Part shown: positions 5,564-31,568 of the stretch, piece by piece
Numbering within the stretch: the first letter of the stretch is position 1
Layout of the letters: every line of letters begins with the position of its first letter
Source: a virus
Lineage: Duplodnaviria > Heunggongvirae > Uroviricota > Caudoviricetes
Length of the DNA stretch: 41,043 nucleotides
Reading direction: 5' to 3' (one strand)
IMG/VR virus record: IMGVR_UViG_2563366998_000006
Notes under the pieces: generated by a model
The model's database searches: none
What the model was told of the DNA's origin: nothing
Seen by the model: only the letters and a program-made list of their open reading frames with translations
Position numbers and translations under genes: made by a program

Positions 5564-5926
5564 TTAATGACCTGCTGCGCGGAGTTTTCCGTCAGGTTCA
5601 CCGGCAAGAGTCAGTAATTGTCCCTGGTCTTCCTGCAGAATAGTCAGGCGACCACCGCGATTGACATACATCGGCGTTTCGGTGGTGTCTTCTTCGGAAA
5701 TTTTCCCGCGGTTAGTCGGGCGAACATATGAGAGTTTGTGTTTGATTTTCACACGGTTTTCATCAAATGGTTCGATTTCCAGGTTGAGTGAGACCTTACC
5801 TTTGGTTTTCGTGTTCATCACACCGGAAGCGACTTCACTGAGAACTGCGCCGATTTTGGTTTCAAATACGCCGCCGTCCAGCTCCCCGATAAATGCCTGC
5901 ACATCAGTACTGCGTTCGCTAGCCAT
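5564..5926 (-). CDS. YfdP-like hypothetical prophage protein
   Basis: Start at the internal ATG (MASERSTDVQAF...) preceded by GAGGAG; 120 aa; the upstream in-frame extension is Arg/Cys/Pro-rich and looks non-coding. Confidence 0.6.
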   Translation of the reverse strand: MASERSTDVQAFIGELDGGVFETKIGAVLSEVASGVMNTKTKGKVSLNLEIEPFDENRVKIKHKLSYVRPTNRGKISEEDTTETPMYVNRGGRLTILQEDQGQLLTLAGEPDGKLRAAGH

Positions 5927-5974
5927 TTTGCTGCTCCTCATCATATCGACCCTGCAAGGTCGGTTAGTTTCTCC

Positions 5975-6063
5975 ACAAAACAGAGAAGAACACCTGCGGT
6001 GACTGCCGCCCGGATGGATTGGGTTATGAGCCCGTCGTCCGGTGATGCTCTTCTCTGTTTTGT
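5975..6063. repeat. Perfect 15-bp inverted repeat (ACAAAACAGAGAAGA / TCTTCTCTGTTTTGT) enclosing a 59-nt GC-rich loop; part of a structured non-coding block
   Basis: Arms at 5975-5989 and 6049-6063 are exact reverse complements; a further 9-bp inverted repeat CGGTACCAG/CTGGTACCG lies at 6072-6108. Confidence 0.6.
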
Positions 6064-6327
6064 AAAAAGGACGGTACCAGCCGGAAGCAAGGGTACAAAC
6101 TGGTACCGCCAGGACTACACACAGCATAAAGTTGTGGTGCCGGGTGCCTCCCGGTGCCTGGCGAAGGTTGCACACCAGGCGGGTGGGTATCCACAGAAGG
6201 TCGACTGTCAGCCTCAACCTTAACCCGCGTGCGCTGAGCCGCATTCACCACAACGCTAAGGATTCTCTCTGGTTGAAAATACTTAGCTGTTATGTGCCTG
6301 CTTTTAGCCACATCAGGCGAGGTGGAC

Positions 6328-6379
6328 CTGGTTATTCCCCAACAACAAGGATTCGGTTAATCTGGTTATCCCCAACAAC
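6328..6379. repeat. Direct repeats CTGGTTAT(T)CCCCAACAAC x2 upstream of the orphan plus-strand gene (putative regulator-binding sites)
   Basis: Copies at 6328-6346 and 6362-6379, ending 16 bp before the ATG at 6395. Confidence 0.5.
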
Positions 6380-6394
6380 GCAAAAGGAAAAGAA

Positions 6395-6829
6395 ATGTCC
6401 GGTAATATCTATACGCTGTACAAATCCCACTGTGAAAATGTTGGAAAGTATCGGGGCATTGAAATCAGTGGGGTAGTGTCATCAGTCGAAATAAGCAAAG
6501 TTGAATCAAGGGCAACATTACTTACTCTTCTGGACCTTGTCTTAAATGAGCACCGGAAGAAATTCGGCACACCCTATAATCAGTTGAATGGGAAAAAGGC
6601 TCTGGTTCACCTTATTCTGATGAAGCATCACTGGATGCCAAAACAGATTAATGAGATGAAATTTGATGAACTTCTTCTTTCAATTCAGGATGAACTCACG
6701 CTTGATAAAATAAGTGTAACCGCCCAGAAATTTTTAGATTATCGAGACTGGAGATCACAAATTCATCACTTTGATGATTTTGACGAAAATGAATGGGATC
6801 CTAATTTGTCTGCACAATATCTAAAGTAA
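6395..6829 (+). CDS. Hypothetical AT-rich orphan protein (accessory gene antisense to the early-left operon)
   Basis: 144-aa ORF with AAGGA RBS 7 nt upstream; visibly AT-rich compared with its neighbours; acidic C-terminus; no family recognised. Confidence 0.5.
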   Translation: MSGNIYTLYKSHCENVGKYRGIEISGVVSSVEISKVESRATLLTLLDLVLNEHRKKFGTPYNQLNGKKALVHLILMKHHWMPKQINEMKFDELLLSIQDELTLDKISVTAQKFLDYRDWRSQIHHFDDFDENEWDPNLSAQYLK

Positions 6830-7007
6830 CATCCTGTGATAAAACCGTGATTTCCTGATCCAGTTTTTTTAAGGAGTCTATTGTTTCCTGTCGATAAGAC
6901 AGCACTTCACGAAGCTGGTTTATAGCTGCCAGCTTCTTTGTCATCCACTCATAAATTTCCTCATCTGTGTAGCCAGGCGCGACGATTTTTGGTTCTGTTT
7001 TGTGCAT
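6801..7007 (-). CDS. Hypothetical small protein, first ORF of the leftward early operon
   Basis: 68 aa from the internal ATG (MHKTEPKIV...) with strong RBS GAGGAGG; 3' end overlaps the 6395-6829 gene convergently. Confidence 0.45.
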   Translation of the reverse strand: MHKTEPKIVAPGYTDEEIYEWMTKKLAAINQLREVLSYRQETIDSLKKLDQEITVLSQDVTLDIVQTN

Positions 7008-7067
7008 TTCACACCTCCTCAAGTTATCAGTTACTTGTTGATGGGGACCAGATTGTTAAAGAGCGAA

Positions 7068-7090
7068 GCGTCCTATAGGGCGCTTTTTTT
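7068..7090 (+). terminator. Intrinsic terminator-like hairpin plus T7 run
   Basis: GCGTCC-TATA-GGGCGC stem-loop (one G-U pair) followed by TTTTTTT on the plus strand. Confidence 0.5.
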
Positions 7091-7263
7091 GTTGCTAACG
7101 AATCATCCGGTCATTCATACGCCACCGGCGGCTACTTCGTGGGCGTCCTGCCTGTTCGTTTTTGACATTTACTGACCTCTTACGACACATGCACCGTGCA
7201 CCGTGTTGCAACCAGATTTTGTTGTAATCCTGTAGTTGGTCTGGAACAAAAGATAAAATTAAA

Positions 7264-7300
7264 TTGCGAGATATGCAAGTAATATTTGCGAAATATGCAA
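7264..7300. promoter_or_regulatory. OL-type operator pair (15-bp sites TTGCGAGATATGCAA and TTGCGAAATATGCAA), presumed pL region
   Basis: Two near-identical 15-bp imperfect palindromes at 7264-7278 and 7286-7300, sharing the TTGCG...GCAA pattern with the sites between cI and cro. Confidence 0.6.
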
Positions 7301-7354: not shown

Positions 7355-8047
7355 TTAATTATGTCTCTTAAGGGTTTGCGACTGACTGATTAAGACCTTT
7401 CCAAAGACCATAAATCGGTGTTCGTTTTCGCTAGTAATTCCCCATTCACGGTAAATCTGGTTATCAGAAATCACCAGCAGTTTGTCAGGAATCATTTGAA
7501 GTCTTTTAACGTATATTTTGTCATCAAAACCAAAGACATATATACCATCACCATCAAACTGATTGATGCTGACATCAACGAAGATGAGATCTCCTGGCTC
7601 AATGGTTGGACACATACTGTCCCCACGAACGTTGATAACTTTGATGTGATTGGCTGGTCGTCCGCCGAACATTGATACAGCATTATCAGTTCTGTATTCG
7701 ATGGCATGAATCACATCAATGACATCACCGCCCTGGATAAGGCCATTTCCCGCACTGGCACTGATATCCAGCATTTCAATACGGAACACATCCTTCACCT
7801 GCGCAACATCCTCATTATTACTGTTTTTATATACAGTATTACTTTTGAGGGCAGAGGTAAAGAGATCAGCAATATCAACACCTAAGCTCTTGGCAATATT
7901 ACTCAGTGTTTGTTCGGTAAATTGTTTTTGCTTACCCGTTTCTAAGCGCGAGATGTTCGCCGCATCTACTCCTATTGCTTCAGCGAGATCGGCGATTTTC
8001 ATGTTCTTCGCTTGGCGAAGTTGTCTGACTCGGTTTCCTATGTTCAT
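7355..8047 (-). CDS. cI: CI-type prophage repressor (N-terminal HTH, C-terminal S24 LexA-like peptidase domain)
   Basis: 230 aa; HTH segment IADLAEAIGVDAANISRLETGK; C-terminal S24-like region (VRGDSMCPTIEPGDLIFVD ... KRL); divergent from cro across an operator-rich intergenic region. Confidence 0.85.
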   Translation of the reverse strand: MNIGNRVRQLRQAKNMKIADLAEAIGVDAANISRLETGKQKQFTEQTLSNIAKSLGVDIADLFTSALKSNTVYKNSNNEDVAQVKDVFRIEMLDISASAGNGLIQGGDVIDVIHAIEYRTDNAVSMFGGRPANHIKVINVRGDSMCPTIEPGDLIFVDVSINQFDGDGIYVFGFDDKIYVKRLQMIPDKLLVISDNQIYREWGITSENEHRFMVFGKVLISQSQTLKRHN

Positions 8048-8067: not shown

Positions 8068-8130
8068 TTGCGTGATAAGCAAATCAACTTGCGCAAAATA
8101 ATTGCGTGAAATAACATGCATAACGCGCAA
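8068..8130. promoter_or_regulatory. OR-type operator cluster between cI and cro (presumed pRM/pR region)
   Basis: TTGCGTGATAAGCAA (8068-8082), TTGCGCAA (8089-8096), TTGCGTGAAATAACA (8102-8116) and reverse-orientation TTGCGCGTTATGCAT (8116-8130). Confidence 0.6.
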
Positions 8131-21949: not shown

Positions 21950-22132
21950 ATGATCATGCTGATTCTCGCGCCTCTGGTGGGCGTGCTGGGTGCGCTTTTG
22001 CTGGCATATGGTGCCTGGCTGATTTATCCCCCGGCGGGTTTTGTTGTTGCCGGGGCGCTGTGCCTGTTCTGGTCGTGGCTGGTGGCGCGATATCTCGATC
22101 GTACACAGCTGTCTGTCGGCGGAGGTAAATAG
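21950..22132 (+). CDS. Small hydrophobic protein
   Basis: 60-aa ORF with two hydrophobic segments between TerL and portal. Confidence 0.4.
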
Positions 22133-23373
22133 TGTTCTTTTCGGGATTATTTCAACGAAAAAGTGACGCACCGGTGACCACGCCAGCAGAGCTGGCGGAT
22201 GCCATCGGGTTGTCCTACGACACCTATACCGGAAAGCAGATCAGCAGCCAGCGGGCCATGCGACTGACGGCGGTTTTTTCCTGTGTCAGGGTGCTGGCGG
22301 AGTCGGTCGGGATGTTGCCCTGCAACCTGTATCACCTGAACGGCAGCCTGAAGCAGAGAGCCACCGACGAACGTCTGCATAAGCTGATCTCCACGCATCC
22401 CAATGGCTATATGACGCCGCAGGAGTTCTGGGAGCTGGTGGTCACCTGTCTGTGCCTGCGGGGAAACTTTTACGCCTACAAAGTGAAAGCATTTGGCGAA
22501 GTGGCTGAACTGCTGCCCGTCGATCCCGGCTGTGTGGTACCGAAGCTTAACAGTAGCTGGGAGCCGGTCTATCAGGTCACATTCCCGGATGGCTCCACGG
22601 ATGTACTGAGCCAGGAGGATATCTGGCATGTGCGCACGCTGACGCTGGACGGTCTGGTGGGACTGAATCCCGTCGCCTATGCCCGTGAGGCAATATCGCT
22701 GGCAGCTGCGACCGAAGAGCACGGGGCCGGACTGTTCAGCAATGGCGCGGTGACGTCGGGTGTGTTGCGTACAGAACAGACGCTGTCGGATCAGGCTTAT
22801 GAGCGCCTGAAGAAAGATTTTGAGGAGCGTCACACCGGGCTTGGTAATGCTCACCGCCCGATGATCCTTGAGATGGGGCTGGACTGGAAGTCGATGGCGC
22901 TGAACGCCGAGGACAGCCAGTTCCTGGAAACCCGCAAGTTTCAGCTTGAAGAAATCTGTCGTCTGTTCCGGGTGCCGTTGCACATGGTGCAGAACACCGA
23001 TCGCGCCACCTTCAACAATATCGAAGAGCTGGGGCTGGGATTTATCAACTATTCACTGGTGCCGTATCTGACCCGCATCGAACAGCGGATCAACACCGGA
23101 CTGGTACGAAAAAGTAAGCAGGGCGTTTATTACGCCAAATTTAACGCCGGGGCGTTACTGCGCGGGGATATGAAGTCCCGTTTTGAAGCCTACGCCACCG
23201 GGATCAACTGGGGAATTTACTCTCCCAATGACTGCCGCGATCTGGAAGATATGAATCCGCGTCCCGGTGGTGATGTCTATCTCACACCGATGAACATGAC
23301 CACGAAACCCTCCGATGGCAGTAAAGCCGGTAAGCAGAAGGATAACGCCAATGCAGACGAAACAACGTCTTGA
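22132..23373 (+). CDS. Portal protein (HK97 family)
   Basis: 413 aa, immediately after the terminase; typical size and position. Confidence 0.85.
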   Translation: MFFSGLFQRKSDAPVTTPAELADAIGLSYDTYTGKQISSQRAMRLTAVFSCVRVLAESVGMLPCNLYHLNGSLKQRATDERLHKLISTHPNGYMTPQEFWELVVTCLCLRGNFYAYKVKAFGEVAELLPVDPGCVVPKLNSSWEPVYQVTFPDGSTDVLSQEDIWHVRTLTLDGLVGLNPVAYAREAISLAAATEEHGAGLFSNGAVTSGVLRTEQTLSDQAYERLKKDFEERHTGLGNAHRPMILEMGLDWKSMALNAEDSQFLETRKFQLEEICRLFRVPLHMVQNTDRATFNNIEELGLGFINYSLVPYLTRIEQRINTGLVRKSKQGVYYAKFNAGALLRGDMKSRFEAYATGINWGIYSPNDCRDLEDMNPRPGGDVYLTPMNMTTKPSDGSKAGKQKDNANADETTS

Positions 23374-24001
23374 TGTACCGCTGAGTCTGAAGTCTATCAG
23401 TGACTCCGGTGAGTTTGAAGGGTATGGCTCCGTCTTTGGTGTAAAGGACAGCCACGATGATGTGGTGATGTCCGGGGCATTTGCCGCCTCCCTGCGGGCG
23501 TGGAGTGACAGAAAAGCGTTACCTGCGCTGCTCTGGCAGCACCGCATGGATGAGCCCATCGGTGTTTACACCGAAATGAAGGAAGACGATGTCGGGCTTT
23601 ACGTCAGGGGGCGGTTGCTCATTGATGATGATCCCCTGGCAAAACGCGCACATGCACACATGAAGGCCGGTTCGTTAACCGGCCTTTCTATTGGGTACGT
23701 CCTGAAAGACTGGGAATACGACCGGACGAAAGAAGCCTTTCTGCTAAAAGAAATCGACCTCTGGGAAGTCAGTCTGGTGACGTTCCCGTCTAACGACGAG
23801 GCACGGATCAGCGACGTCAAGAACGCGCTGGCCCGCGGGGAAATCCCCGAACAGAAAAAAATCGAAAGAGTCCTGCGTGATGTCGGACTCTCCCGTACCC
23901 AGGCCAAAGCATTCATGGCCGGGGGCTATAGCGCACTGTCCCTGCGCGACGCTGAGGATGTGAGCTCTGCACTGAATGCACTGAAAAATCTGAACTTCTA
24001 A
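23351..24001 (+). CDS. Prohead protease (HK97 family)
   Basis: 216 aa from the ATG at 23351; lies between portal and major capsid; GYGSVFGVKDSHDDVV motif region. Confidence 0.8.
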   Translation: MQTKQRLDVPLSLKSISDSGEFEGYGSVFGVKDSHDDVVMSGAFAASLRAWSDRKALPALLWQHRMDEPIGVYTEMKEDDVGLYVRGRLLIDDDPLAKRAHAHMKAGSLTGLSIGYVLKDWEYDRTKEAFLLKEIDLWEVSLVTFPSNDEARISDVKNALARGEIPEQKKIERVLRDVGLSRTQAKAFMAGGYSALSLRDAEDVSSALNALKNLNF

Positions 24002-24015
24002 TCAGGAGAAATACG

Positions 24016-25221
24016 ATGGCGGTAGATATTAAAGATGTCGAACAGGTCGCGCAGGAGCTGCAGCAGAAGTTTGACGACTTCAAAGCAAAGAACGACAAGC
24101 GCGTGGAGGCGATTGAGCAGGAAAAAGGCAAACTTGCCGGGCAGGTGGAAACCCTGAACGGAAAACTCAGCGAGCTGGAAAATCTCAAAAGCGACCTTGA
24201 AAAAGAGCTGCTTGAGCTGAAACGTCCGGCAGGTGGTGCGCAAAATAAACTGGCCACCGAGCATAAAGAGGCGTTTGTGGGTTTTCTGCGTAAAGGCCGT
24301 GAAGACGGTCTGCGCGATCTGGAGCGTAAGGCATTGCAGGTGGGCACCGATGAAGACGGTGGCTACGCCGTGCCGGAAGAACTGGATCGCAACATTCTCA
24401 ACCTGCTGAAAGATGAAGTGGTGATGCGTCAGGAAGCCACGGTGATCACCGTTGGCGGTTCCGACTACAAAAAACTGGTGAATCTGGGCGGTACGGCTTC
24501 CGGATGGGTGGGGGAAACGGATACGCGATCCCAGACTGCCACCTCCAGACTGGAGCTGATTGAACCTCTCATGGGGGAAATCTACGGTAACCCGCAGGCC
24601 ACCCAGAAAATGCTGGACGATGCCTTTTTCAACGTGGAGGCCTGGATCAACAGCGAGCTGGCAACCGAATTTGCCGAACAGGAAGAAATTGCCTTTACCT
24701 CCGGCGATGGCACCAAGAAGCCAAAAGGGTTCCTGGCGTATGAATCCACCGATGAAACCGATAAGGTCCGGGCGTTCGGCAAACTTCAGCATATTGTATC
24801 CGGCGAAGCGACGGCGGTGACCGCAGACGCCATTATCAAACTGATTTACACGCTGCGTAAGGCACACCGCACTGGCGCGAAATTCATGATGAACAACAAC
24901 AGCCTGTTTGCCATCCGTCTGCTGAAAGACAGCGAGGGTAACTATCTGTGGCGTCCGGGGCTGGAACTGGGGCAGCCGTCCTCTCTGGCGGGTTACGGTA
25001 TCGCTGAAAACGAACAGATGCCGGATATCGCCGCTGATGCGAAAGCCATTGCATTTGGTAACTTCAAACGGGGTTACACCATCGTTGACCGTATCGGCAC
25101 CCGCATTCTGCGTGACCCGTACACCAATAAACCGTTTGTCGGTTTTTATACCACCAAGCGCACCGGCGGGATGCTGGTCGATTCGCAGGCCATCAAACTG
25201 CTGAAGATTGCAGCGGCGTAA
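24016..25221 (+). CDS. Major capsid protein (HK97 fold)
   Basis: 401 aa with N-terminal coiled-coil delta-domain-like region, following the protease. Confidence 0.9.
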   Translation: MAVDIKDVEQVAQELQQKFDDFKAKNDKRVEAIEQEKGKLAGQVETLNGKLSELENLKSDLEKELLELKRPAGGAQNKLATEHKEAFVGFLRKGREDGLRDLERKALQVGTDEDGGYAVPEELDRNILNLLKDEVVMRQEATVITVGGSDYKKLVNLGGTASGWVGETDTRSQTATSRLELIEPLMGEIYGNPQATQKMLDDAFFNVEAWINSELATEFAEQEEIAFTSGDGTKKPKGFLAYESTDETDKVRAFGKLQHIVSGEATAVTADAIIKLIYTLRKAHRTGAKFMMNNNSLFAIRLLKDSEGNYLWRPGLELGQPSSLAGYGIAENEQMPDIAADAKAIAFGNFKRGYTIVDRIGTRILRDPYTNKPFVGFYTTKRTGGMLVDSQAIKLLKIAAA

Positions 25222-25228
25222 TCACTCA

Positions 25229-25257
25229 GGGGCGCGGAACCGCGCCCCTGTTCTGAC
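25229..25257 (+). terminator. Strong GC stem-loop immediately after the capsid gene (terminator/mRNA stabiliser)
   Basis: GGGGCGCGG-AA-CCGCGCCCC perfect 9-bp stem followed by TGTTCTG. Confidence 0.5.
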
Positions 25258-25269
25258 GGGTGAAGAATC

Positions 25270-25470
25270 ATGATCCTGAAACAAGATCTGAAATGGTCAC
25301 CGGACGGTATGCGTGTTGAGGTCATTCGGGCCGGTGAGTATGACGACGGGGCGCTTCCTGCCCGGGTGCAGGAGATTGCACTTCAGGCTGGGTTAGCAGA
25401 GCGCGGAATCAGTACAAAAAGCAGTAAAGCGGCAAAAGAGAAAAAAGCCACGACCAGTAAAGAGGGCTGA
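25270..25470 (+). CDS. Hypothetical small head-region protein
   Basis: 66-aa ORF between capsid and connector genes. Confidence 0.4.
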   Translation: MILKQDLKWSPDGMRVEVIRAGEYDDGALPARVQEIALQAGLAERGISTKSSKAAKEKKATTSKEG

Positions 25471-25472
25471 GT

Positions 25473-25796
25473 ATGCTTCTGACAATGGAAGAGATTAAAG
25501 CCCAACTCCGGCTGGATGAGGATTTCGATGCTGATGACCGCCATCTGCAACTGCTGGCCTGTGCGGCGCAAAAGCGGACGGAAACGTATCTGAACCGGAA
25601 GCTCTATGCACCGGATGAAACCATTCCGGACAGCGATCCGGACGGGCTGCACCTGCCGGATGATATTCGTCTGGGGATGCTGATGCTTATCAGCCATTTT
25701 TACGAAAACCGCTCGTCGGTTACGGAAGTGGAGAAACTCGACATGCCGCAGAGTTTTGGCTGGCTTGTCGGCCCGTACAGGTACTTTCCGCAATGA
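25473..25796 (+). CDS. Head-tail connector (gp6-like)
   Basis: 107 aa; position and size typical. Confidence 0.7.
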   Translation: MLLTMEEIKAQLRLDEDFDADDRHLQLLACAAQKRTETYLNRKLYAPDETIPDSDPDGLHLPDDIRLGMLMLISHFYENRSSVTEVEKLDMPQSFGWLVGPYRYFPQ

Positions 25797-26203
25797 AAAT
25801 TCGTCAGGCGCAGACCAGCGCAACCTACATTCTGCCGGACCCCGGTGAACTGAATAAACGCGTCCTGATCCGCCAGCGGGTGGATATGCCCGCGGATAAC
25901 TTTGGCGTGGAGCATCAATACCCGGTTACGTTCCGGACATGGGCGAAGGTTATCCAGACCAGTGCCACCACCTGGCAGGAAACCGCGCAGACTGGAGACG
26001 CCATCACCCATTACATCACCATTCGCTACCGCCGGGGGATCACCGCTGATTATGAGGTGGTCTGCGGTGACAGTGTGTACCGGGTGAAACGTCAGCGCGA
26101 TCTGAACGGGGCGCGGCGCTTTCTGCTGCTGGAGTGTACGGAACTGGGCGAATTTACGCAGAGTCACGGAGGCAGCAATGGCGACTCCCTTTTTTCACGT
26201 TGA
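25793..26203 (+). CDS. Head closure/adaptor protein
   Basis: 136 aa; overlapping gene order in the head-completion module. Confidence 0.65.
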   Translation: MKIRQAQTSATYILPDPGELNKRVLIRQRVDMPADNFGVEHQYPVTFRTWAKVIQTSATTWQETAQTGDAITHYITIRYRRGITADYEVVCGDSVYRVKRQRDLNGARRFLLLECTELGEFTQSHGGSNGDSLFSR

Positions 26204-26684
26204 TGTTCAGCAGCCCGCGGAGATGCGCTTTAACCGCGCCCGTGTCCGGCGGGCGTTTGTCACGATTGGGCAGCGTCATATGCGTGATGCCCGTCGGCTG
26301 GTGATGCGCCGTGCGCGGTCGGCACCGGGTGAAAATCCCGGTTATCAGACCGGACGTCTGGCTCGTTCGATTGGTTACATGGTGCCGAGAGCCAGTAAAA
26401 AGCGAGCCGGTTTTATGACACGCATTGCCCCTAACCAGCGCAACGGGAAGGGGAACCGGATGATCTCTGGTGACTTCTATCCGGCGTTTCTGTTTTTTGG
26501 TGTCCGGGGAGGAGCAAAACGTCGTCGTAGCCATCATCGTGGTGCATCCGGTGGCAGCGGCTGGCGGCTGGCTCCACGTAATAACTTTATGGTGGAAACT
26601 CTTGAAAAGAACCGCAGCTGGACACGCTATTTTCTGGCGCGGGAATTGCGTAAATCACTGAAGCCGGAGCGACGACACAGATGA
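26178..26684 (+). CDS. HK97 gp10-like head-tail joining protein
   Basis: 168 aa basic protein in the head-completion module. Confidence 0.6.
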   Translation: MATPFFHVDVQQPAEMRFNRARVRRAFVTIGQRHMRDARRLVMRRARSAPGENPGYQTGRLARSIGYMVPRASKKRAGFMTRIAPNQRNGKGNRMISGDFYPAFLFFGVRGGAKRRRSHHRGASGGSGWRLAPRNNFMVETLEKNRSWTRYFLARELRKSLKPERRHR

Positions 26685-27241
26685 AACTGACGCCTGTTAT
26701 TGCTGCGCTGCGTGCCCGCTGCCCGTATTTTGAAAACCGGGTGGCAGGCGCGGCACAGTTCAAAAATCTGCCGGAGGTCGGAAAGCTGAGACTCCCGGCG
26801 GCGTATGTGGTACCGGGTGATGACTCTCCGGGAGAAAACAAAAGCCAGACCGACTACTGGCAGGAGCTGAAAGAGGGCTTCTCCGTGGTTGTCATACTGA
26901 GTAACGGGCGTGATGAGCGCGGTCAGTTTGCCTCGTATGATGTGGTGGACGATGTCCGGCAGATGCTCTTTAAGGCTCTGCTGGGCTGGAACCCGGAAGC
27001 GTGCGGTAACCCGATTACCTATGACGGCGGCACGCTGCTGGATCTGAATCGTCATGAGCTGATTTATCAGTTCGATTTTTCGGTCATCAGCGAGCTGACC
27101 GAAGACGATACCCGCCAGCAGGATGACCTGAACAGTCTGGATGAACTGCGAACGCTGGCGATTGATGTTGATTATCTCGATCCCGGTAACGGGCCTGACG
27201 GCGATATCGAACATCACACCGAAATAACCCTTCCTTCCTGA
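26681..27241 (+). CDS. Putative tail completion/neck protein
   Basis: 186 aa immediately upstream of the sheath gene cluster. Confidence 0.55.
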   Translation: MKLTPVIAALRARCPYFENRVAGAAQFKNLPEVGKLRLPAAYVVPGDDSPGENKSQTDYWQELKEGFSVVVILSNGRDERGQFASYDVVDDVRQMLFKALLGWNPEACGNPITYDGGTLLDLNRHELIYQFDFSVISELTEDDTRQQDDLNSLDELRTLAIDVDYLDPGNGPDGDIEHHTEITLPS

Positions 27242-27249
27242 GGATCCTC

Positions 27250-27420
27250 ATGTTTGTGAAACCTGTTAAAGGGCGGTCAGTGCCTGACCCTGCCCGCGGC
27301 GACCTTTTGCCCGCCGAAGGGCGAAATGTTGACGAGAACAACTACTGGCTGCGCCGTGAAGCAGCGGGTGATATCCGGCGCGTGAATAAAAAGGTGAATA
27401 CCGATGACGATAAGCTTTAA
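27250..27420 (+). CDS. Small protein preceding the tail sheath gene
   Basis: 56-aa ORF below the ORF-track size cutoff: MFVKPVKGRSVPDPARGDLLPAEGRNVDENNYWLRREAAGDIRRVNKKVNTDDDKL; its stop overlaps the sheath start. Confidence 0.45.
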   Translation: MFVKPVKGRSVPDPARGDLLPAEGRNVDENNYWLRREAAGDIRRVNKKVNTDDDKL

Positions 27421-28900
27421 CACCATTCCGTCGAATACGCTGGTTCCGCTGTTTTATGCGGAAATGGATAACCAGGCTGCGAATACTGCACAGGACAGCG
27501 GAGCATCGCTGCTGATTGGTCATGCCAATAACGGTGCAGAGATTGTTGCCAACAGTCTGGTGCTGATGCCGTCGGCAGACTATGCATGCCAGATTTGTGG
27601 TGCGGGAAGTCAGCTGGCGCGTATGGTCGAGGCTTATCGCCAGACCGACCCGTTTGGTGAGCTGTATGTGATTGCCGTTCCTGAATCCACGGGCGCGGCG
27701 GCAACGGTTACGCTGACGGTGACTGGAGCAGCAACCGAAAGCGGCACGGTGAATGTTTATGTGGGACGTACCCGCGTGCAGGCACCGGTGACCAACGGCG
27801 ATAACGTCACGACGATTGCCAGCAGTATCCAGGATGCCATCAATGCCGTTCCGACCCTGCCGTTTACGGCCTCATCTTCGGCAGGCGTGGTCACGCTGAC
27901 CGCGCGTCATAAGGGGCTTTGCGGGAATGAAATTCCTGTCAGCCTCAATTACTACGGCTTTGGTGGTGGCGAAGTGCTGCCAGCGGGTGTACAGATTGCT
28001 GTGGCGACGGGTACCGCCGGAACGGGCGCTCCGGTTCTCACCGGCGCGGTGGCTGCAATGGCGGATGAGCCGTTTGATTATATCGGCCTGCCGTTCAACG
28101 ACACGGCCTCCGTTAACACGCTGGTGACCGAGATGAACGATACCAGCGGTCGCTGGAGCTATGCGCGTCAGCTGTATGGTCATGTGTATACGGCAAAGAT
28201 CGGCACGCTGTCAGAACTGGTGACCGCAGGTGACCAGTTTAACCAGCAGCACATTACCCTGGCGGGATACGAAAAAGACACCCAGACGCCTGCCGACGAG
28301 CTGGCGGCAAGCCGTACCGCCCGCGCAGCGGTGTTTATTCGCAACGATCCGGCACGTCCCACGCAGACCGGTGAGCTGGTGGGTATGCTGCCTGCGCCGA
28401 AGGGGAAACGGTTCACGATGACAGAACAACAGACCCTGCTGTCTCATGGCGTGGCAACGGCGTATGTCGAAAGCGGGGTGCTGCGCATTCAGCGTGATGT
28501 CACCACGTACAGGGAAAATGCTTACGGGGTTGCGGATAACAGCTACCTCGACAGCGAGACGCTGCATACCAGTGCGTATGTACTGCGCAAACTGAAATCC
28601 GTCATTACCAGTAAGTACGGGCGTCACAAGCTTGCCAGCGACGGTACCCGCTTTGGTCCCGGTCAGGCGATTGTCACCCCGGCGGTGATCAAAGGGGAAC
28701 TGCTGGCAACCTACCGTCAGCTCGAGCGTGCGGGCATCGTGGAAAACTACGAACTGTTTAAGCAGTACCTGGTTGTGGAGCGTGATGCCAGCGATCCAAA
28801 TCGCCTGAACACGCTGTTCCCGCCTGACTATGTTAACCAGCTGCGTGTCTTTGCCGTGGTTAACCAGTTCCGTCTTCAGTATTCAGAGGAGTCCGCATAA
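27404..28900 (+). CDS. Contractile tail sheath protein (Mu L-like)
   Basis: 498 aa; size and position before the tube gene. Confidence 0.85.
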   Translation: MTISFNTIPSNTLVPLFYAEMDNQAANTAQDSGASLLIGHANNGAEIVANSLVLMPSADYACQICGAGSQLARMVEAYRQTDPFGELYVIAVPESTGAAATVTLTVTGAATESGTVNVYVGRTRVQAPVTNGDNVTTIASSIQDAINAVPTLPFTASSSAGVVTLTARHKGLCGNEIPVSLNYYGFGGGEVLPAGVQIAVATGTAGTGAPVLTGAVAAMADEPFDYIGLPFNDTASVNTLVTEMNDTSGRWSYARQLYGHVYTAKIGTLSELVTAGDQFNQQHITLAGYEKDTQTPADELAASRTARAAVFIRNDPARPTQTGELVGMLPAPKGKRFTMTEQQTLLSHGVATAYVESGVLRIQRDVTTYRENAYGVADNSYLDSETLHTSAYVLRKLKSVITSKYGRHKLASDGTRFGPGQAIVTPAVIKGELLATYRQLERAGIVENYELFKQYLVVERDASDPNRLNTLFPPDYVNQLRVFAVVNQFRLQYSEESA

Positions 28901-29256
28901 TGGCCCGTATCGGGGGAACCTGTTATTTCAAGATTGACGGTCAGCAGCTATCGCTGACCGGCGGCATTGAGGTGCCCATGAACAAAACGGTTAATGATGA
29001 CATCATCGGTCTGGACGGTTCAGTGGACCGCAAGGAAACTCACCGTGCACCTTATGTCAAAGGGACCTTCAAGGTACCGAAGAATTTTCCGGTGAGCAAA
29101 ATCACCTCGTCTGATGAGATGACCATCACTGCCGAGCTGGCGAACGGTCAGGTCTATGTATTGTCGTCAGCCTGGCTGCACGGCGAAGCGAACCATAATG
29201 CCGAAGAAGGCACGGTCGATATTGAATTTCACGGTGAAGAAGGGGATTACCAGTGA
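28900..29256 (+). CDS. Tail tube protein (Mu M-like)
   Basis: 118 aa directly after the sheath with TAATG overlap. Confidence 0.8.
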   Translation: MARIGGTCYFKIDGQQLSLTGGIEVPMNKTVNDDIIGLDGSVDRKETHRAPYVKGTFKVPKNFPVSKITSSDEMTITAELANGQVYVLSSAWLHGEANHNAEEGTVDIEFHGEEGDYQ

Positions 29257-29576
29257 TTGAGCTTGTACTTAAAAAACCGATCATCGCCCACAAAGAAACA
29301 CTGCATGTGTTGGAAATACGTGAGCCTACGTATGACGAGATTGAGGCGCTGGGGTTCCCTTTCTCTGTTTCGCCTGATGGTGGTATGAAAATGGACAGTC
29401 AGGTGGCGCTGAAATATATCCCGCTTCTGGCCGGGATCCCGCGCTCGTCTGCAGCGCAGATGACGAAGCTGGATATTTTCAAGGCAGGCATGATTGTAAT
29501 GCGTTTTTTTACCGGCTTGGAGACGGAAGAGACCTCAGGAAGCGATTCTACAATGTCGCGTGGTTCTGGAAATTAA
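29253..29576 (+). CDS. Tail assembly chaperone
   Basis: 107 aa between tube and tape measure. Confidence 0.6.
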   Translation: MIELVLKKPIIAHKETLHVLEIREPTYDEIEALGFPFSVSPDGGMKMDSQVALKYIPLLAGIPRSSAAQMTKLDIFKAGMIVMRFFTGLETEETSGSDSTMSRGSGN

Positions 29577-29660
29577 ACCCACTTGAACTTCGCCGGACGG
29601 CTATTTCCCACTTTGCTGATCTGGAGGCAGAGGCCGTCCGTATAAATGAGGAGATGAAGC

Positions 29661-31568
29661 ATGGCTGATAATTTTCAGCTGAAAGCCATCATCACCGCCG
29701 TTGACAGGCTATCCGGCCCGCTTAAAGGTATGCAGCGTCAGCTTAAGGGATTTCAGAAAGAAGTCTCCAGCCTTGCTCTGGGTGCTGCCGGGGCGGGTAC
29801 TGCAATAATGGGGGCACTGGCACTCCCTGTAAAATCAGCCATCACCCTTGAATCGAAGATGGCTGATGTCCGCAAAGTGGTGGACGGTCTGGATACGCCG
29901 GATGCATTTAAGGCCATGACGGAGCAGGTACGCGCTTTGTCTACAGAGCTTCCCATGTCTGCAGACGGGATCGCGGAAATTGTGGCGGCTGGCGGTCAGG
30001 CCGGGATTGCACGTGATGAACTGATGCAGTTTGCCACTGATGCGGTGAAGATGGGCGTGGCCTTTGATACAACGGCTGAAGAGTCCGGGCAGATGATGGC
30101 CCAGTGGCGTACTGCGTTTAATATGACGCAGGATGAAGTGGCCGGGCTGGCTGACAAAATCAACTACCTTGGTAATACCGGCCCGGCGAATGCGAAGAAA
30201 ATCTCCGATATTGTTACGCGTATTGGTCCTTTAGGTGGTGTTGCAGGTGTGGCTTCCGGCGAAATTGCGGCAATGGGGGCAACCATTGCCGGGATGGGCG
30301 TGGAGTCAGAAATTGCCGCCACAGGGATCAAGAACTTCATGCTTTCCCTGACCGCGGGAAATTCTGCGACAAAATCGCAGAAACAGGCATTGCGTTTTCT
30401 GCGGATCAATCCGAAGAAATTAGCTGCTGATATGCAGAAAGATGCCCGGGGCACCATGCTGTCTGTACTGGATGCGATGGCTAAAGTGCCTAAAGAAAAA
30501 CGGGCCGCTGTGCTGAATGCCCTGTTCGGGAAAGAGTCTCTGGGCGCGATAGCACCTCTGCTGACTAACCTTGATTTGTTGCGTACCAACTTCAGGCGGG
30601 TTGCGGATTCCCAGCAGTATGGCAGTTCGATGCAGAAGGAATATGCTTCGAGGGCAGCGACGACGGAAAACCAGCTTTTACTTCTGCAAAATCAACTTGA
30701 TGCCATTTCTTCCACGCTGGGGGAAACGTTTCTTCCTGAGGTTAATGATGGTCTTGAAGCGGTAAAACCGCTCCTTGAGGAAGTGAGAACGTTTGTCCGT
30801 GAAAACCCGGAGCTCGTTAAGACCATTGCTAAAATCGGTCTGGCCTTACTGACGGTGGGAGCCGCTGCAGGCTCTTTGTCCAGAATTATGAAAGTTCTCG
30901 GCGGTGTGATGAATATGACGCCAGCTAAGGGGCTGATTGCTCTTCTGGTTGGTGGCGCTTACCTCATTATTGATAACTGGGAAACCGTAGGCCCCGTCAT
31001 AAAAAAAGTCTGGCACGTGGTGGATGAAACGGCGCAGGCGATGGGGGGATGGGAAACTGTTCTGAAAGCGATTGCCCTGTTTATGGCAACCAAATGGGTT
31101 GCTGACGTTACCAAATCCATTACCGCAGTGACCAGAGAGATGCGTACGCTGGGGAAGGTATCGGCAGAAACGGGATTGATGGGGAAAGGCCGCGGCTTTA
31201 TCGGGAAGGCCGGGGGATATGGTTTTCTGGGAACCCTGATGTATGAGCCGGTTAAAGATACTCTGGAAAGTGTTGTTCCTGAAGATACGGTTAACTGGCT
31301 GGATAATAAAGGGCTGTTTCTGGCTTCAGACTGGACGCCTTTTTTTGATCGTAAAGAGTACGAGCAGTATCAGGCCAGCCTGAGCCAGTACAAACCCAAT
31401 GTTCCGCTGTTGAATCCATCTTCTTCCATGACACAGCACAGCGAACTGAAAGTCACGTTCGAGAATGCTCCGCCAGGTATGAAGATAATTGATGTACCGG
31501 GCAAAGCCGATCCCCTGATGAAAATCACGCACGATGTGGGGTATTCCCCTTTTCGTTTTCCACGATAA
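29661..31568 (+). CDS. Tail tape measure protein
   Basis: 635 aa, Ala/Gly-rich helical protein with hydrophobic central segments. Confidence 0.85.
   Translation: MADNFQLKAIITAVDRLSGPLKGMQRQLKGFQKEVSSLALGAAGAGTAIMGALALPVKSAITLESKMADVRKVVDGLDTPDAFKAMTEQVRALSTELPMSADGIAEIVAAGGQAGIARDELMQFATDAVKMGVAFDTTAEESGQMMAQWRTAFNMTQDEVAGLADKINYLGNTGPANAKKISDIVTRIGPLGGVAGVASGEIAAMGATIAGMGVESEIAATGIKNFMLSLTAGNSATKSQKQALRFLRINPKKLAADMQKDARGTMLSVLDAMAKVPKEKRAAVLNALFGKESLGAIAPLLTNLDLLRTNFRRVADSQQYGSSMQKEYASRAATTENQLLLLQNQLDAISSTLGETFLPEVNDGLEAVKPLLEEVRTFVRENPELVKTIAKIGLALLTVGAAAGSLSRIMKVLGGVMNMTPAKGLIALLVGGAYLIIDNWETVGPVIKKVWHVVDETAQAMGGWETVLKAIALFMATKWVADVTKSITAVTREMRTLGKVSAETGLMGKGRGFIGKAGGYGFLGTLMYEPVKDTLESVVPEDTVNWLDNKGLFLASDWTPFFDRKEYEQYQASLSQYKPNVPLLNPSSSMTQHSELKVTFENAPPGMKIIDVPGKADPLMKITHDVGYSPFRFPR

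Follow-up and report, generated by a model that had tools for sequence, protein, structure and literature searches.

We examine a stretch of DNA of 41,043 nucleotides (nt) from a virus of the Caudoviricetes (IMG/VR record IMGVR_UViG_2563366998_000006; the whole stretch is called the window below), and within it a block at positions 5927-6394 that lies between the start of a yfdP gene (5926, minus strand) and a plus-strand gene that begins at 6395. We find that structured RNA is encoded in this block, on the minus strand, which is the strand of yfdP and of the early-left operon of the phage, and that at least four separable modules are strung along it. Among these are a multi-helix domain resembling the small RNA (sRNA) STnc100, a single-stranded stretch shared with the sRNA RprA and followed by a terminator close to that of the sRNA DicF, and a three-way junction that we call module B. 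Considered as a whole, the block is likely, though by no means certain, to be an sRNA-producing, RNase-processed leader cassette of the dicF type, belonging to a repressor-controlled early-left operon and working as RNA.

The original prediction, made from the letters of the sequence, described a single GC-rich, non-coding block of about 470 base pairs (bp) with nested perfect inverted repeats, and offered it as a candidate structured RNA or protein-binding platform. A repeat search recovers both of the repeats it named, one of 15 bp (5975-5989 with 6049-6063) and one of 9 bp (6072-6080 with 6100-6108, here I4), and the short GC stems that it placed near 6130-6180 include a hairpin CCGGG-AGGCA-CCCGG at 6140-6154. 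The 15-bp repeat is the perfect outer part of a longer repeat, I1, in which two 25-nt arms (5975-5999 with 6039-6063) are 84% complementary. Two further repeats are found in the same region: I5, a perfect 9-bp pair (6131-6139 and 6246-6254), and I3 (6255-6267 with 6275-6287). The GC content is indeed raised, at 0.52-0.58 over 5900-6300 against 0.35-0.48 in the flanks, and, as had been said, there is no convincing open reading frame (ORF): none in the block has a Pfam match and none is conserved among homologues. The idea of one block of 470 bp holds less well. A conserved fold does run up to about 6290, but it is made of several modules, and 6290-6394 lies outside it.

Folding calculations and comparison with relatives both point to RNA, and to one strand. 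As minus-strand RNA, 5965-6290 folds to -141.7 kcal/mol with a z-score of -6.3, and none of 100 shuffles does as well; the plus strand of the same region gives z = -3.9. The four mismatches between the 25-nt DNA arms of I1 are all paired in the minus-strand RNA fold, which argues for an RNA made from the strand that encodes yfdP, yfdQ and yfdR. Covariation across related prophages, which had been suggested as a check, gives compensatory base changes in three separate modules. Taken together with G.U pairs that form on the minus strand only, a strand-biased covariance-model score and a match to STnc100, these changes support the structured-RNA side of the original prediction; the protein-binding platform finds no support, and what is conserved is pairing and not the symmetry of the DNA sequence.

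The largest of the folded units is the STnc100-type domain. The Rfam scan that had been suggested returns nothing at gathering thresholds in the window (and only tRNAs in 12 related loci), but below threshold it gives a full-length match: the STnc100 model RF02076 aligns with 6284-6062 on the minus strand, over model positions 1-206, at 43.1 bits (E 1.2e-7), where the gathering cut-off is 47 bits. The domain is closed by a 9-bp stem (GUUGUGGUG/CACCACAAC, the two arms of I5), followed by the junction AAU; its interior holds an invariant hairpin GCGGCUCAGCGCACGC, two variable hairpins, and CCGGG-AGGCA-CCCGG (6154-6140), which abuts the closing stem. We aligned 18 distinct homologues of the domain, from E. 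coli, Salmonella, Cronobacter, Scandinavium, Shigella, E. albertii, E. ruysiae, P1 and SJ46. Partners are paired in 88% of the cells of this alignment, compared with 27-45% when the partners are slid, and the pairs themselves change: those of the closing stem switch between U-A, A-U and G-C and between U-A and C-G, and the AGGCA hairpin switches between CCGGG/CCCGG, CCUGG/CCAGG and GGUGG/CCACC. Directly 5' of the domain stands hairpin P0, which in Salmonella phage ST64B has another sequence that still pairs (GAUAAGAGUU...AACUCUUAUC).

On the other side of the domain comes a stretch whose 14-nt core, UGCUGUGUGUAGUC (6126-6113), is identical to RprA in the same sense; relatives share 18 identical nt. 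When the complement of the full stretch is searched in E. coli genomes it matches rprA at 20 of 21 positions in essentially every genome, and the reading of the rprA locus (...AACGAAUUGCUGUGUGUAGUCUUUGCCC...) has the identity in the sense of RprA itself. Homologues that differ in their upstream domains and in their terminator stems keep the stretch nearly invariant (AUUGCUGUGUGUAGUCUU). The stretch 6130-6110 may serve as an sRNA seed or as an entry site for RNase E. RprA is known to be cleaved by RNase E (PMC6202311), and a 47-nt RNase E-processed form of it, which is active alone, has a 5' end that coincides with the core of our stretch (PMC9262595). A search for targets of the seed within the window found none.

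The seed runs into an intrinsic terminator. Its hairpin (6108-6072) has perfect 9-bp arms and 13 pairs in the minimum free energy (MFE) structure, and is followed by UCC and five U residues (6068-6064). The stem GGCGGUACCAG is close to GGCGGUAUCAG of DicF. The DicF model of Rfam (RF00039, cut-off 48 bits) reaches 15.7 bits (E 2.7) in the window, and 29.6 and 29.1 bits in the related loci L097 and L086; in other homologues, other terminator stems stand behind the same seed.

Past the terminator lies module B, which is a separable and well-supported structured RNA motif, absent from Rfam. A 20-bp stem (helix P1, 6063-6044 with 5994-5975), which can be extended across the U-run of the terminator by pairing with GGAGA, closes a junction from which two further helices emerge: P2 (6042-6010), with the loop GACGGGCUCAUAACCCAAUCC, and P3, a small variable hairpin (6009-5996). 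Taken alone, the 99-nt hairpin around 5970-6068 gives a z-score of -8.4 on the minus strand. When IMG/VR was scanned with the loop sequence as a pattern, more than 120 contigs matched. Among 50 distinct sequences of type A, 96.8% of cells are paired, versus 43-50% with partners slid, 10 pairs are changed on both sides, and many pairs are G.U. A covariance model built from these 50 sequences (R1) scores 122.2 bits on the minus strand of the window and 43.3 bits on the plus strand; it also finds copies in ST64B, sal3, phiNP and locus L228, two weaker copies in phage P1, and a "type K" form in Klebsiella phages. Rfam gives no match for module B at E<=10, and a full-text literature search for the motif found no paper.

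The loop of P2 deserves a closer reading. Because the 50 sequences were collected with this loop as bait, its invariance among them is circular, and loops outside the bait set do vary (ACGGGCUCAUUACCCAAUCC in ST64B; ACGGGUUCAUAUCCCAAUCU and ACGGGGUCAUAUCCCAAUCU in phage P1). The GGG/CCC stem is kept in ST64B and sal3, as is the sequence UCAU, which also persists in both of the weaker P1 matches; L228 and the decayed copy in the e14 prophage of K-12 have lost CAU from the loop. In the window, 14 nt of the loop match the E. coli initiator tRNA metZ exactly, at positions that comprise three G-C pairs and the anticodon loop of the tRNA. This is the only metZ match of at least 11 nt in the window on either strand, none of 1000 shuffles reaches 14 nt, and the predicted fold pairs GGG with CCC around a 7-nt loop, as in the tRNA. 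The type-K module of Klebsiella phages is found directly after tRNA-Asn and tRNA-Arg genes, downstream of Q, with a closing stem GGCCUG/CAGGCC followed by RCCA. As to a pairing partner for the module B loop within the window, the candidates are weak or fall inside a 427-aa (amino acid) ORF, and we rejected them. The coordinates of these modules and of the features around them are collected in Table 1.

Table 1. Features of the block and its early-left surroundings (positions in the window)
Feature	Position	Strand	Basis
Two operator-like palindromes TTGC-N7-GCAA	7264-7278, 7286-7300	minus	Exact motif matches
boxA-type sequence GCUCUUUAACAA	7053-7064	minus	Exact rrn-type match in the early-left leader
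Segment outside the conserved fold, with two 19-nt direct repeats (family D2)	6290-6394; repeats 6321-6339, 6355-6373		Repeat search, homology breakpoints
Hairpin P0, directly 5' of the multi-helix domain	6255-6287	minus	Repeat I3; MFE and centroid folds
STnc100-type multi-helix domain	6131-6254	minus	Sub-threshold Rfam match, covariation
Conserved single-stranded stretch UUUAUGCUGUGUGUAGUCCUG	6110-6130	minus	Unpaired in centroid fold
Intrinsic terminator	6064-6109	minus	Repeat I4, fold; STnc100 alignment puts its terminator here
Module B, three-way junction	5975-6063	minus	Fold z-score, covariation, covariance model
tRNA-like segment CGGGCUCAUAACCC in the P2 loop	6021-6034	minus	Equals positions 29-42 of E. 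coli initiator tRNA metZ
Linker, small hairpin and yfdP Shine-Dalgarno region	5927-5974	minus	Sequence; yfdP start codon at 5926

Now we consider where the block sits. A cI-like repressor gene (7355-8047, minus strand) has a terminator directly behind it, and exact matches to TTGC-N7-GCAA occur three times in the window (7264-7278, 7286-7300 and 8068-8082), flanking this gene. These palindromes are probably the operators oL and oR of the prophage. The pair at 7264-7278 and 7286-7300 would then probably be oL, with an early-left promoter near 7260 from which the cassette is transcribed. In ST64B and in Citrobacter phage phiNP, the homologue of the block lies in a gene-free gap of 0.8-1 kb between the cI-like gene and the homologue of yfdP, the first early-left gene, with everything on one strand. 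The location of the repressor and operators, together with this gap, argues that the block belongs to the leader of a repressor-controlled early-left operon. Following the leader on the minus strand, one meets boxA, then a 68-aa ORF (7007-6804) with no Pfam match, then the plus-strand ECs1072/ymfI-like gene, which is crossed antisense, then the block, and then yfdP, yfdQ and yfdR. The boxA match is the only one in the window, but one match at <=1 mismatch also turns up in about 23% of shuffles, and it is only its position that makes it suggestive; no site matching boxA was found downstream of the cro-like gene. A boxA-like UGCUCUYU that stands 5' of the domain in several relatives was rejected, being the 3' arm of a preceding module-B-like stem.

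Several features of the surroundings can be recorded alongside. The ECs1072/ymfI-like gene (6395-6829, plus strand) encodes 144 aa with no Pfam match, runs in the opposite orientation inside the early-left operon, and overlaps the 3' end of the 68-aa ORF on the minus strand; the arrangement is moron-like, with terminators at 6911-6936 and 7065-7086. The hairpin that precedes boxA is the terminator of this gene when it is read on the plus strand. The two direct repeats outside the fold stand just upstream of the same gene, and a minus-strand stretch there (6323-6291) is common, in alignments, to Cronobacter phage phiES15 and the e14 prophage. At the other end of the block, the linker is GGAGAAAC (5974-5967) and the small hairpin (5964-5945) has the loop UUGCAG; most type-A homologues likewise continue past module B with GGAGA and a short hairpin whose loop is (U)GCAG.

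How would such a cassette work? The folds, the strand, the modular layout, the geometry of the terminator and the sequence identities are properties of the block itself; for its expression, its processing sites, its binding by Hfq and its targets we infer the following scheme. Once the repressor (7355-8047) is inactivated, transcription would proceed from right to left from a promoter near 7260. The transcript would cross the ORF at 7007-6804, run antisense to the gene at 6395-6829 and enter the folded cassette. Those transcripts that end at the terminator would be cut back by RNase E in the A/U-rich junction that follows the closing stem of the domain, and the product would be an Hfq-type sRNA of about 65 nt, with a 5' end that mimics processed RprA and a terminator that is DicF-like. 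Those that read through would fold module B, whose 20-bp stem (up to about 27 bp) would be a natural substrate of RNase III, placed just ahead of the ribosome-binding site of yfdP. If RNase III cut here, the sRNA would gain an alternative 3' end and the yfdP-yfdQ-yfdR message would be uncoupled or tuned, as described for DicF in the Qin dicB operon.

Under this dicF-type scheme the terminator, the conserved single strand, the long duplex and the genomic context all find an explanation. A number of results weigh against it. All Rfam matches in the window fall under the curated cut-offs (43.1 of 47 bits for STnc100 and 15.7 of 48 for DicF), and RprA has no match there at E<=10. The core identical to RprA is only 14 nt long in the window, where many relatives have 18. 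A consensus promoter scan called no early-left promoter; nor was a convincing dedicated sigma-70 promoter seen, by eye or by scan, directly upstream of P0. A simple RNAduplex test against the ftsZ leader does no better than shuffles and so lends no support to DicF-like targeting of ftsZ; the same crude test fails to single out genuine DicF as well. Finally, the scheme leaves the elaborate STnc100-type domain unexplained, and likewise the conserved 21-nt loop of module B, since a plain RNase III hairpin would not need such a loop. Because the domain and the tRNA-fMet-like loop are unaccounted for, readings in which the block acts as a cis-antiterminator or as a tRNA mimic have to be weighed as well.

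The broadest of the alternatives takes the block as a toolkit of host-RNA mimics that is deployed at induction: a copy of processed RprA would join or sponge the host Rcs/RprA regulon, and module B, mimicking the anticodon arm of the initiator tRNA, would titrate a factor specific for tRNA-fMet, such as a VapC-type nuclease or the 30S P site, all on a tRNA-derived STnc100 scaffold. We think this unlikely, while noting what would follow from it, namely that the triggering of the retron-Sen2 toxin by a clone of ymfH, the K-12 copy of the block, would be an effect of the RNA and not of a protein.

A narrower reading, distinctly unlikely in our judgment, makes module B and perhaps also the STnc100-type domain tRNA mimics, decoys or ligands for VapC-type anticodon nucleases, RNase P, MetRS or the 30S P site, which would protect the induced phage or reprogram translation. 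VapC toxins of Shigella and Salmonella, the hosts of SfV, SfII, SfIV and ST64B, have been reported to cut the initiator tRNA in its anticodon loop. The 14 nt shared with the anticodon arm, with matching stem-loop geometry, speak for such mimicry, as do the retention of the GGG/CCC stem and UCAU in ST64B and sal3, which were not found by the bait (and of UCAU in the two weaker P1 matches), and the placement of the Klebsiella module after tRNA-Asn and tRNA-Arg with its acceptor-like stem and RCCA. Moreover, segments of two related loci, L097 4364-4488 (minus) and L086 1800-1925, reach the Rfam tRNA cut-off, at 29.5 and 40 bits against 29; both are at or beside the same scaffold and contain insertions of 50-60 nt, and ARAGORN calls neither. 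These similarities hint that the scaffold descends from or imitates tRNA. On the other hand, the Rfam tRNA model (RF00005) finds nothing in the window, ARAGORN calls no tRNA there or in 16 related loci, the loop invariance is circular for the reason given above, and L228 and the e14 copy do without CAU.

To about the same degree improbable is a cis-acting role in antitermination, in which the domain, perhaps with boxA, would modify RNA polymerase or recruit Nus factors so that the terminator at 6108-6064 and later ones are read through, much like a put or nut site in a phage without a recognizable N gene. The domain does lie immediately upstream of an intrinsic terminator in a repressor-controlled leader with an exact boxA further up, related domains precede genes in the Qin dicB, P1 ban and late STnc100 operons, and we see no Arg-rich protein like N, the first ORF being the 68-aa one without a Pfam match. 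In Qin, however, the domain is downstream of the DicF terminator and not upstream of it; canonical STnc100 units are arrayed in tandem, and a terminator may or may not follow them; and PasD, which a preprint groups with STnc100, is reported to be an Hfq-bound, trans-acting sRNA (bioRxiv 10.64898/2026.05.13.724894). No likeness to a known antiterminator RNA was detected, and the R1 model finds nothing in bases 22000-30000 of HK022, which is a weak comparison, as the put sites were not located.

That the block is instead a decayed protein-coding gene of the YmfH family, or encodes a small plus-strand protein starting from the ATG at 6026, we regard as very improbable. Annotation does lean this way: PGAP labels 5941-6251 (minus) a "frameshifted hypothetical protein", and the e14 copy in K-12 (L372 5070-5381), which is 91% identical and has ymfI and xisE as neighbors, the gene order matching that of the window, is annotated as ymfH (b1142, 103 aa). 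In SfIV, yfdP is extended across the homologous stretch, and many homologues have a plus-strand ORF that starts MSPSSGDAL. Yet the K-12 frame arises only through a 1-nt deletion in the AGGCA loop (in e14 the module B loop is damaged as well), the frame is shifted in the window, homologues differ by insertions or deletions of 1 nt and 20 nt, ST64B has a different ORF set, and Pfam matches are lacking, so that YmfH does not behave as a protein family with a conserved ORF. The plus-strand ORF (its ATG is opposite the CAU) was rejected too: it ranges from 11 to 133 aa with unrelated tails, is not conserved, and the residues that vary in it coincide exactly with the compensatory stem positions. The original prediction had named an intact ORF in related phages, with no conserved structure, as one outcome that would speak against it; the relatives show the opposite, a ymfH ORF that owes itself to a deletion and is not conserved, and a fold that is. 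Judged by these sequence comparisons, YmfH is probably not a protein. In expression data ymfH belongs to the YmfT iModulon, with intE, xisE, ymfJ, ymfT, ymfL and the SOS genes sulA and recN (PMC12133099), a membership which indicates that it is co-expressed with the early genes of e14. A ymfH clone has also been found to trigger the retron-Sen2 toxin in a screen (bioRxiv 10.1101/2020.06.22.160242), and this may be an effect of the RNA.

Hardly credible, finally, is that the inverted repeats are protein sites at the DNA level, whether operators, a recombination site or an origin: the 15-bp and 9-bp palindromic arms are perfect and the immunity region is adjacent, but arm sequences change while pairing is kept, G.U pairs favor one strand, the arms stand 19-59 nt from each other and enclose structured inserts, and the repressor operator motif is a different one, located elsewhere.

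The block has consequences beyond this phage. The locus occurs in 2781 of 5426 complete E. coli genomes, about half, and converting phages of Shigella and Salmonella carry it too, as do P1-like plasmids; existing annotations pass over it, call it a pseudogene or make it a protein (YmfH). Its identity as RNA corrects the annotation of a K-12 y-gene and changes how genetic screens that used the ymfH clone are to be read. It also ties STnc100/PasD, DicF and RprA, which have been treated separately, to a single modular scaffold that recurs in early and late phage operons and in those of plasmid prophages, and the meeting of three sRNA families on this scaffold suggests that part of the core regulator RprA arose in phages or was captured by them. 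If the loop mimicry were functional, it would offer a testable link from prophage induction to translation initiation or to tRNA-targeting defence toxins.

We close by setting the block beside known systems. A related architecture is seen in K-12 Qin (the dicF-dicB spacer), P1, ST64B and phiES15; a genome pattern scan with TGCGGCTNNGCGCACGCGG added about six useful enterobacterial loci, most of its 120 loci being chance matches of a GC-rich pattern in high-GC genomes. The closest parallel is dicF of Qin. Both regions lie in a repressor-controlled early-left operon, both have a terminator of the GGCGGUAnCAG type, and in both the sRNA unit is flanked by large folded domains. The block has the anatomy of the DicF type: a putative short sRNA unit in an early operon, an intrinsic terminator, and a long duplex just downstream. 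In Qin (L130 2230-2590) we observe dicF flanked by two closed multi-helix domains, of which the one between dicF and dicB is of the type found in the window; its closing stem is a perfect 20 bp and begins 8 nt past the 53-nt DicF end. RNase E generates the 5' end of DicF; the 3' end arises either at the terminator, giving 53 nt, or through RNase III, giving 72 nt (PMC5069750). By our own mapping, the 72-nt end would fall 11 nt into the predicted 20-bp closing stem, which fits the proposed scheme. The two differ in the seed (UUUCUGGUGACGUU in DicF, UGCUGUGUGUAGUC in the block), in the order of modules, which is reversed (the block has the domain before the sRNA, Qin has it after dicF), and in the genes downstream, which are yfdP-yfdQ-yfdR here and dicB in Qin.

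Phages P1 and phiES15 repeat the theme. The domain of P1 stands just before tciA in the C1-controlled ban operon, which also holds an annotated "dicF-like region", three tRNA genes and two module-B-like elements. These elements (L004 1643-1757 and 1920-2015) are antisense to the plp and upl ORFs and come directly before the STnc100-type domain and tciA; these two ORF calls may be worth re-examining. In phiES15, the domain and an RprA-like unit stand directly before kil.

The N leader of phage lambda contains an RNase III-sensitive hairpin. Like module B, it places a long stem after the leader signals and ahead of the ribosome-binding site that serves the first early-left gene; the likeness is one of layout, and module B is a three-way junction with a conserved loop where the lambda leader has a simple hairpin. 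Species 1 and 2 of T4 and the C4 RNA precursor of P1 and P7 are tRNA-like stable RNAs and substrates of RNase P. They too are folded RNAs with acceptor-like stems beside phage tRNA genes, as is the type-K module B, which follows tRNAs and ends in RCCA; they differ in that the window has no match to a tRNA model.

STnc100 itself shares with the block domain, by model alignment and by comparison with 40 or more canonical units, a closing helix, GGUGAAU, internal hairpins and CACCGGGAGGCACCCGGCACC, as well as a near-identical CACCGGGAGGCACCCGGCACCA element, and both are prophage-borne in enterobacteria. Canonical units also share the AGGCA hairpin and are arranged in tandem. One IMG/VR contig (L255, about 9186-10190, reverse strand) has four STnc100-type units in tandem within about 1 kb, reminiscent of tRNA arrays. 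The domain in the window stays below the STnc100 cut-off, its first internal hairpin is GCGGCUCAGCGCACGC where the canonical one is CCCCCUGUGCGGAGGGG, and it is followed by an RprA-like stretch that canonical copies do without. STnc100 and PasD have been reported from the late region, around Q, stx, esterase and lysis genes (PMC12370729; bioRxiv 10.64898/2026.05.13.724894), whereas the block domain lies in the early-left operon between the repressor and yfdP. The preprint groups PasD with STnc100 and reports it as an abundant Hfq-bound, trans-acting sRNA (bioRxiv 10.64898/2026.05.13.724894).

With RprA the block shares, through its 14-nt core, the sequence of the processed form (AAUUGCUGUGUGUAGUCUUU and terminator), and in both the identical run stands just 5' of a Rho-independent terminator; in the relative L118 the terminator stem, too, resembles that of RprA. 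The 5' half of RprA, which pairs with rpoS, is absent from the block; rprA is a core-genome locus and the block a prophage-borne, repressor-controlled one; and the three-hairpin architecture of the RprA model (RF00034, cut-off 70 bits) is not seen in the window. The phiES15 locus (L127 2069-2169) gives a full-length Rfam RprA alignment at 41 bits, below that cut-off. As this alignment puts the second hairpin of RprA on the AGGCA hairpin, RprA may share ancestry with the 3' half of the scaffold. Set against all of these systems, the kind of element is one already known, a prophage early-operon sRNA cassette, and what is new is module B, which is undescribed in the libraries, and the link to RprA.

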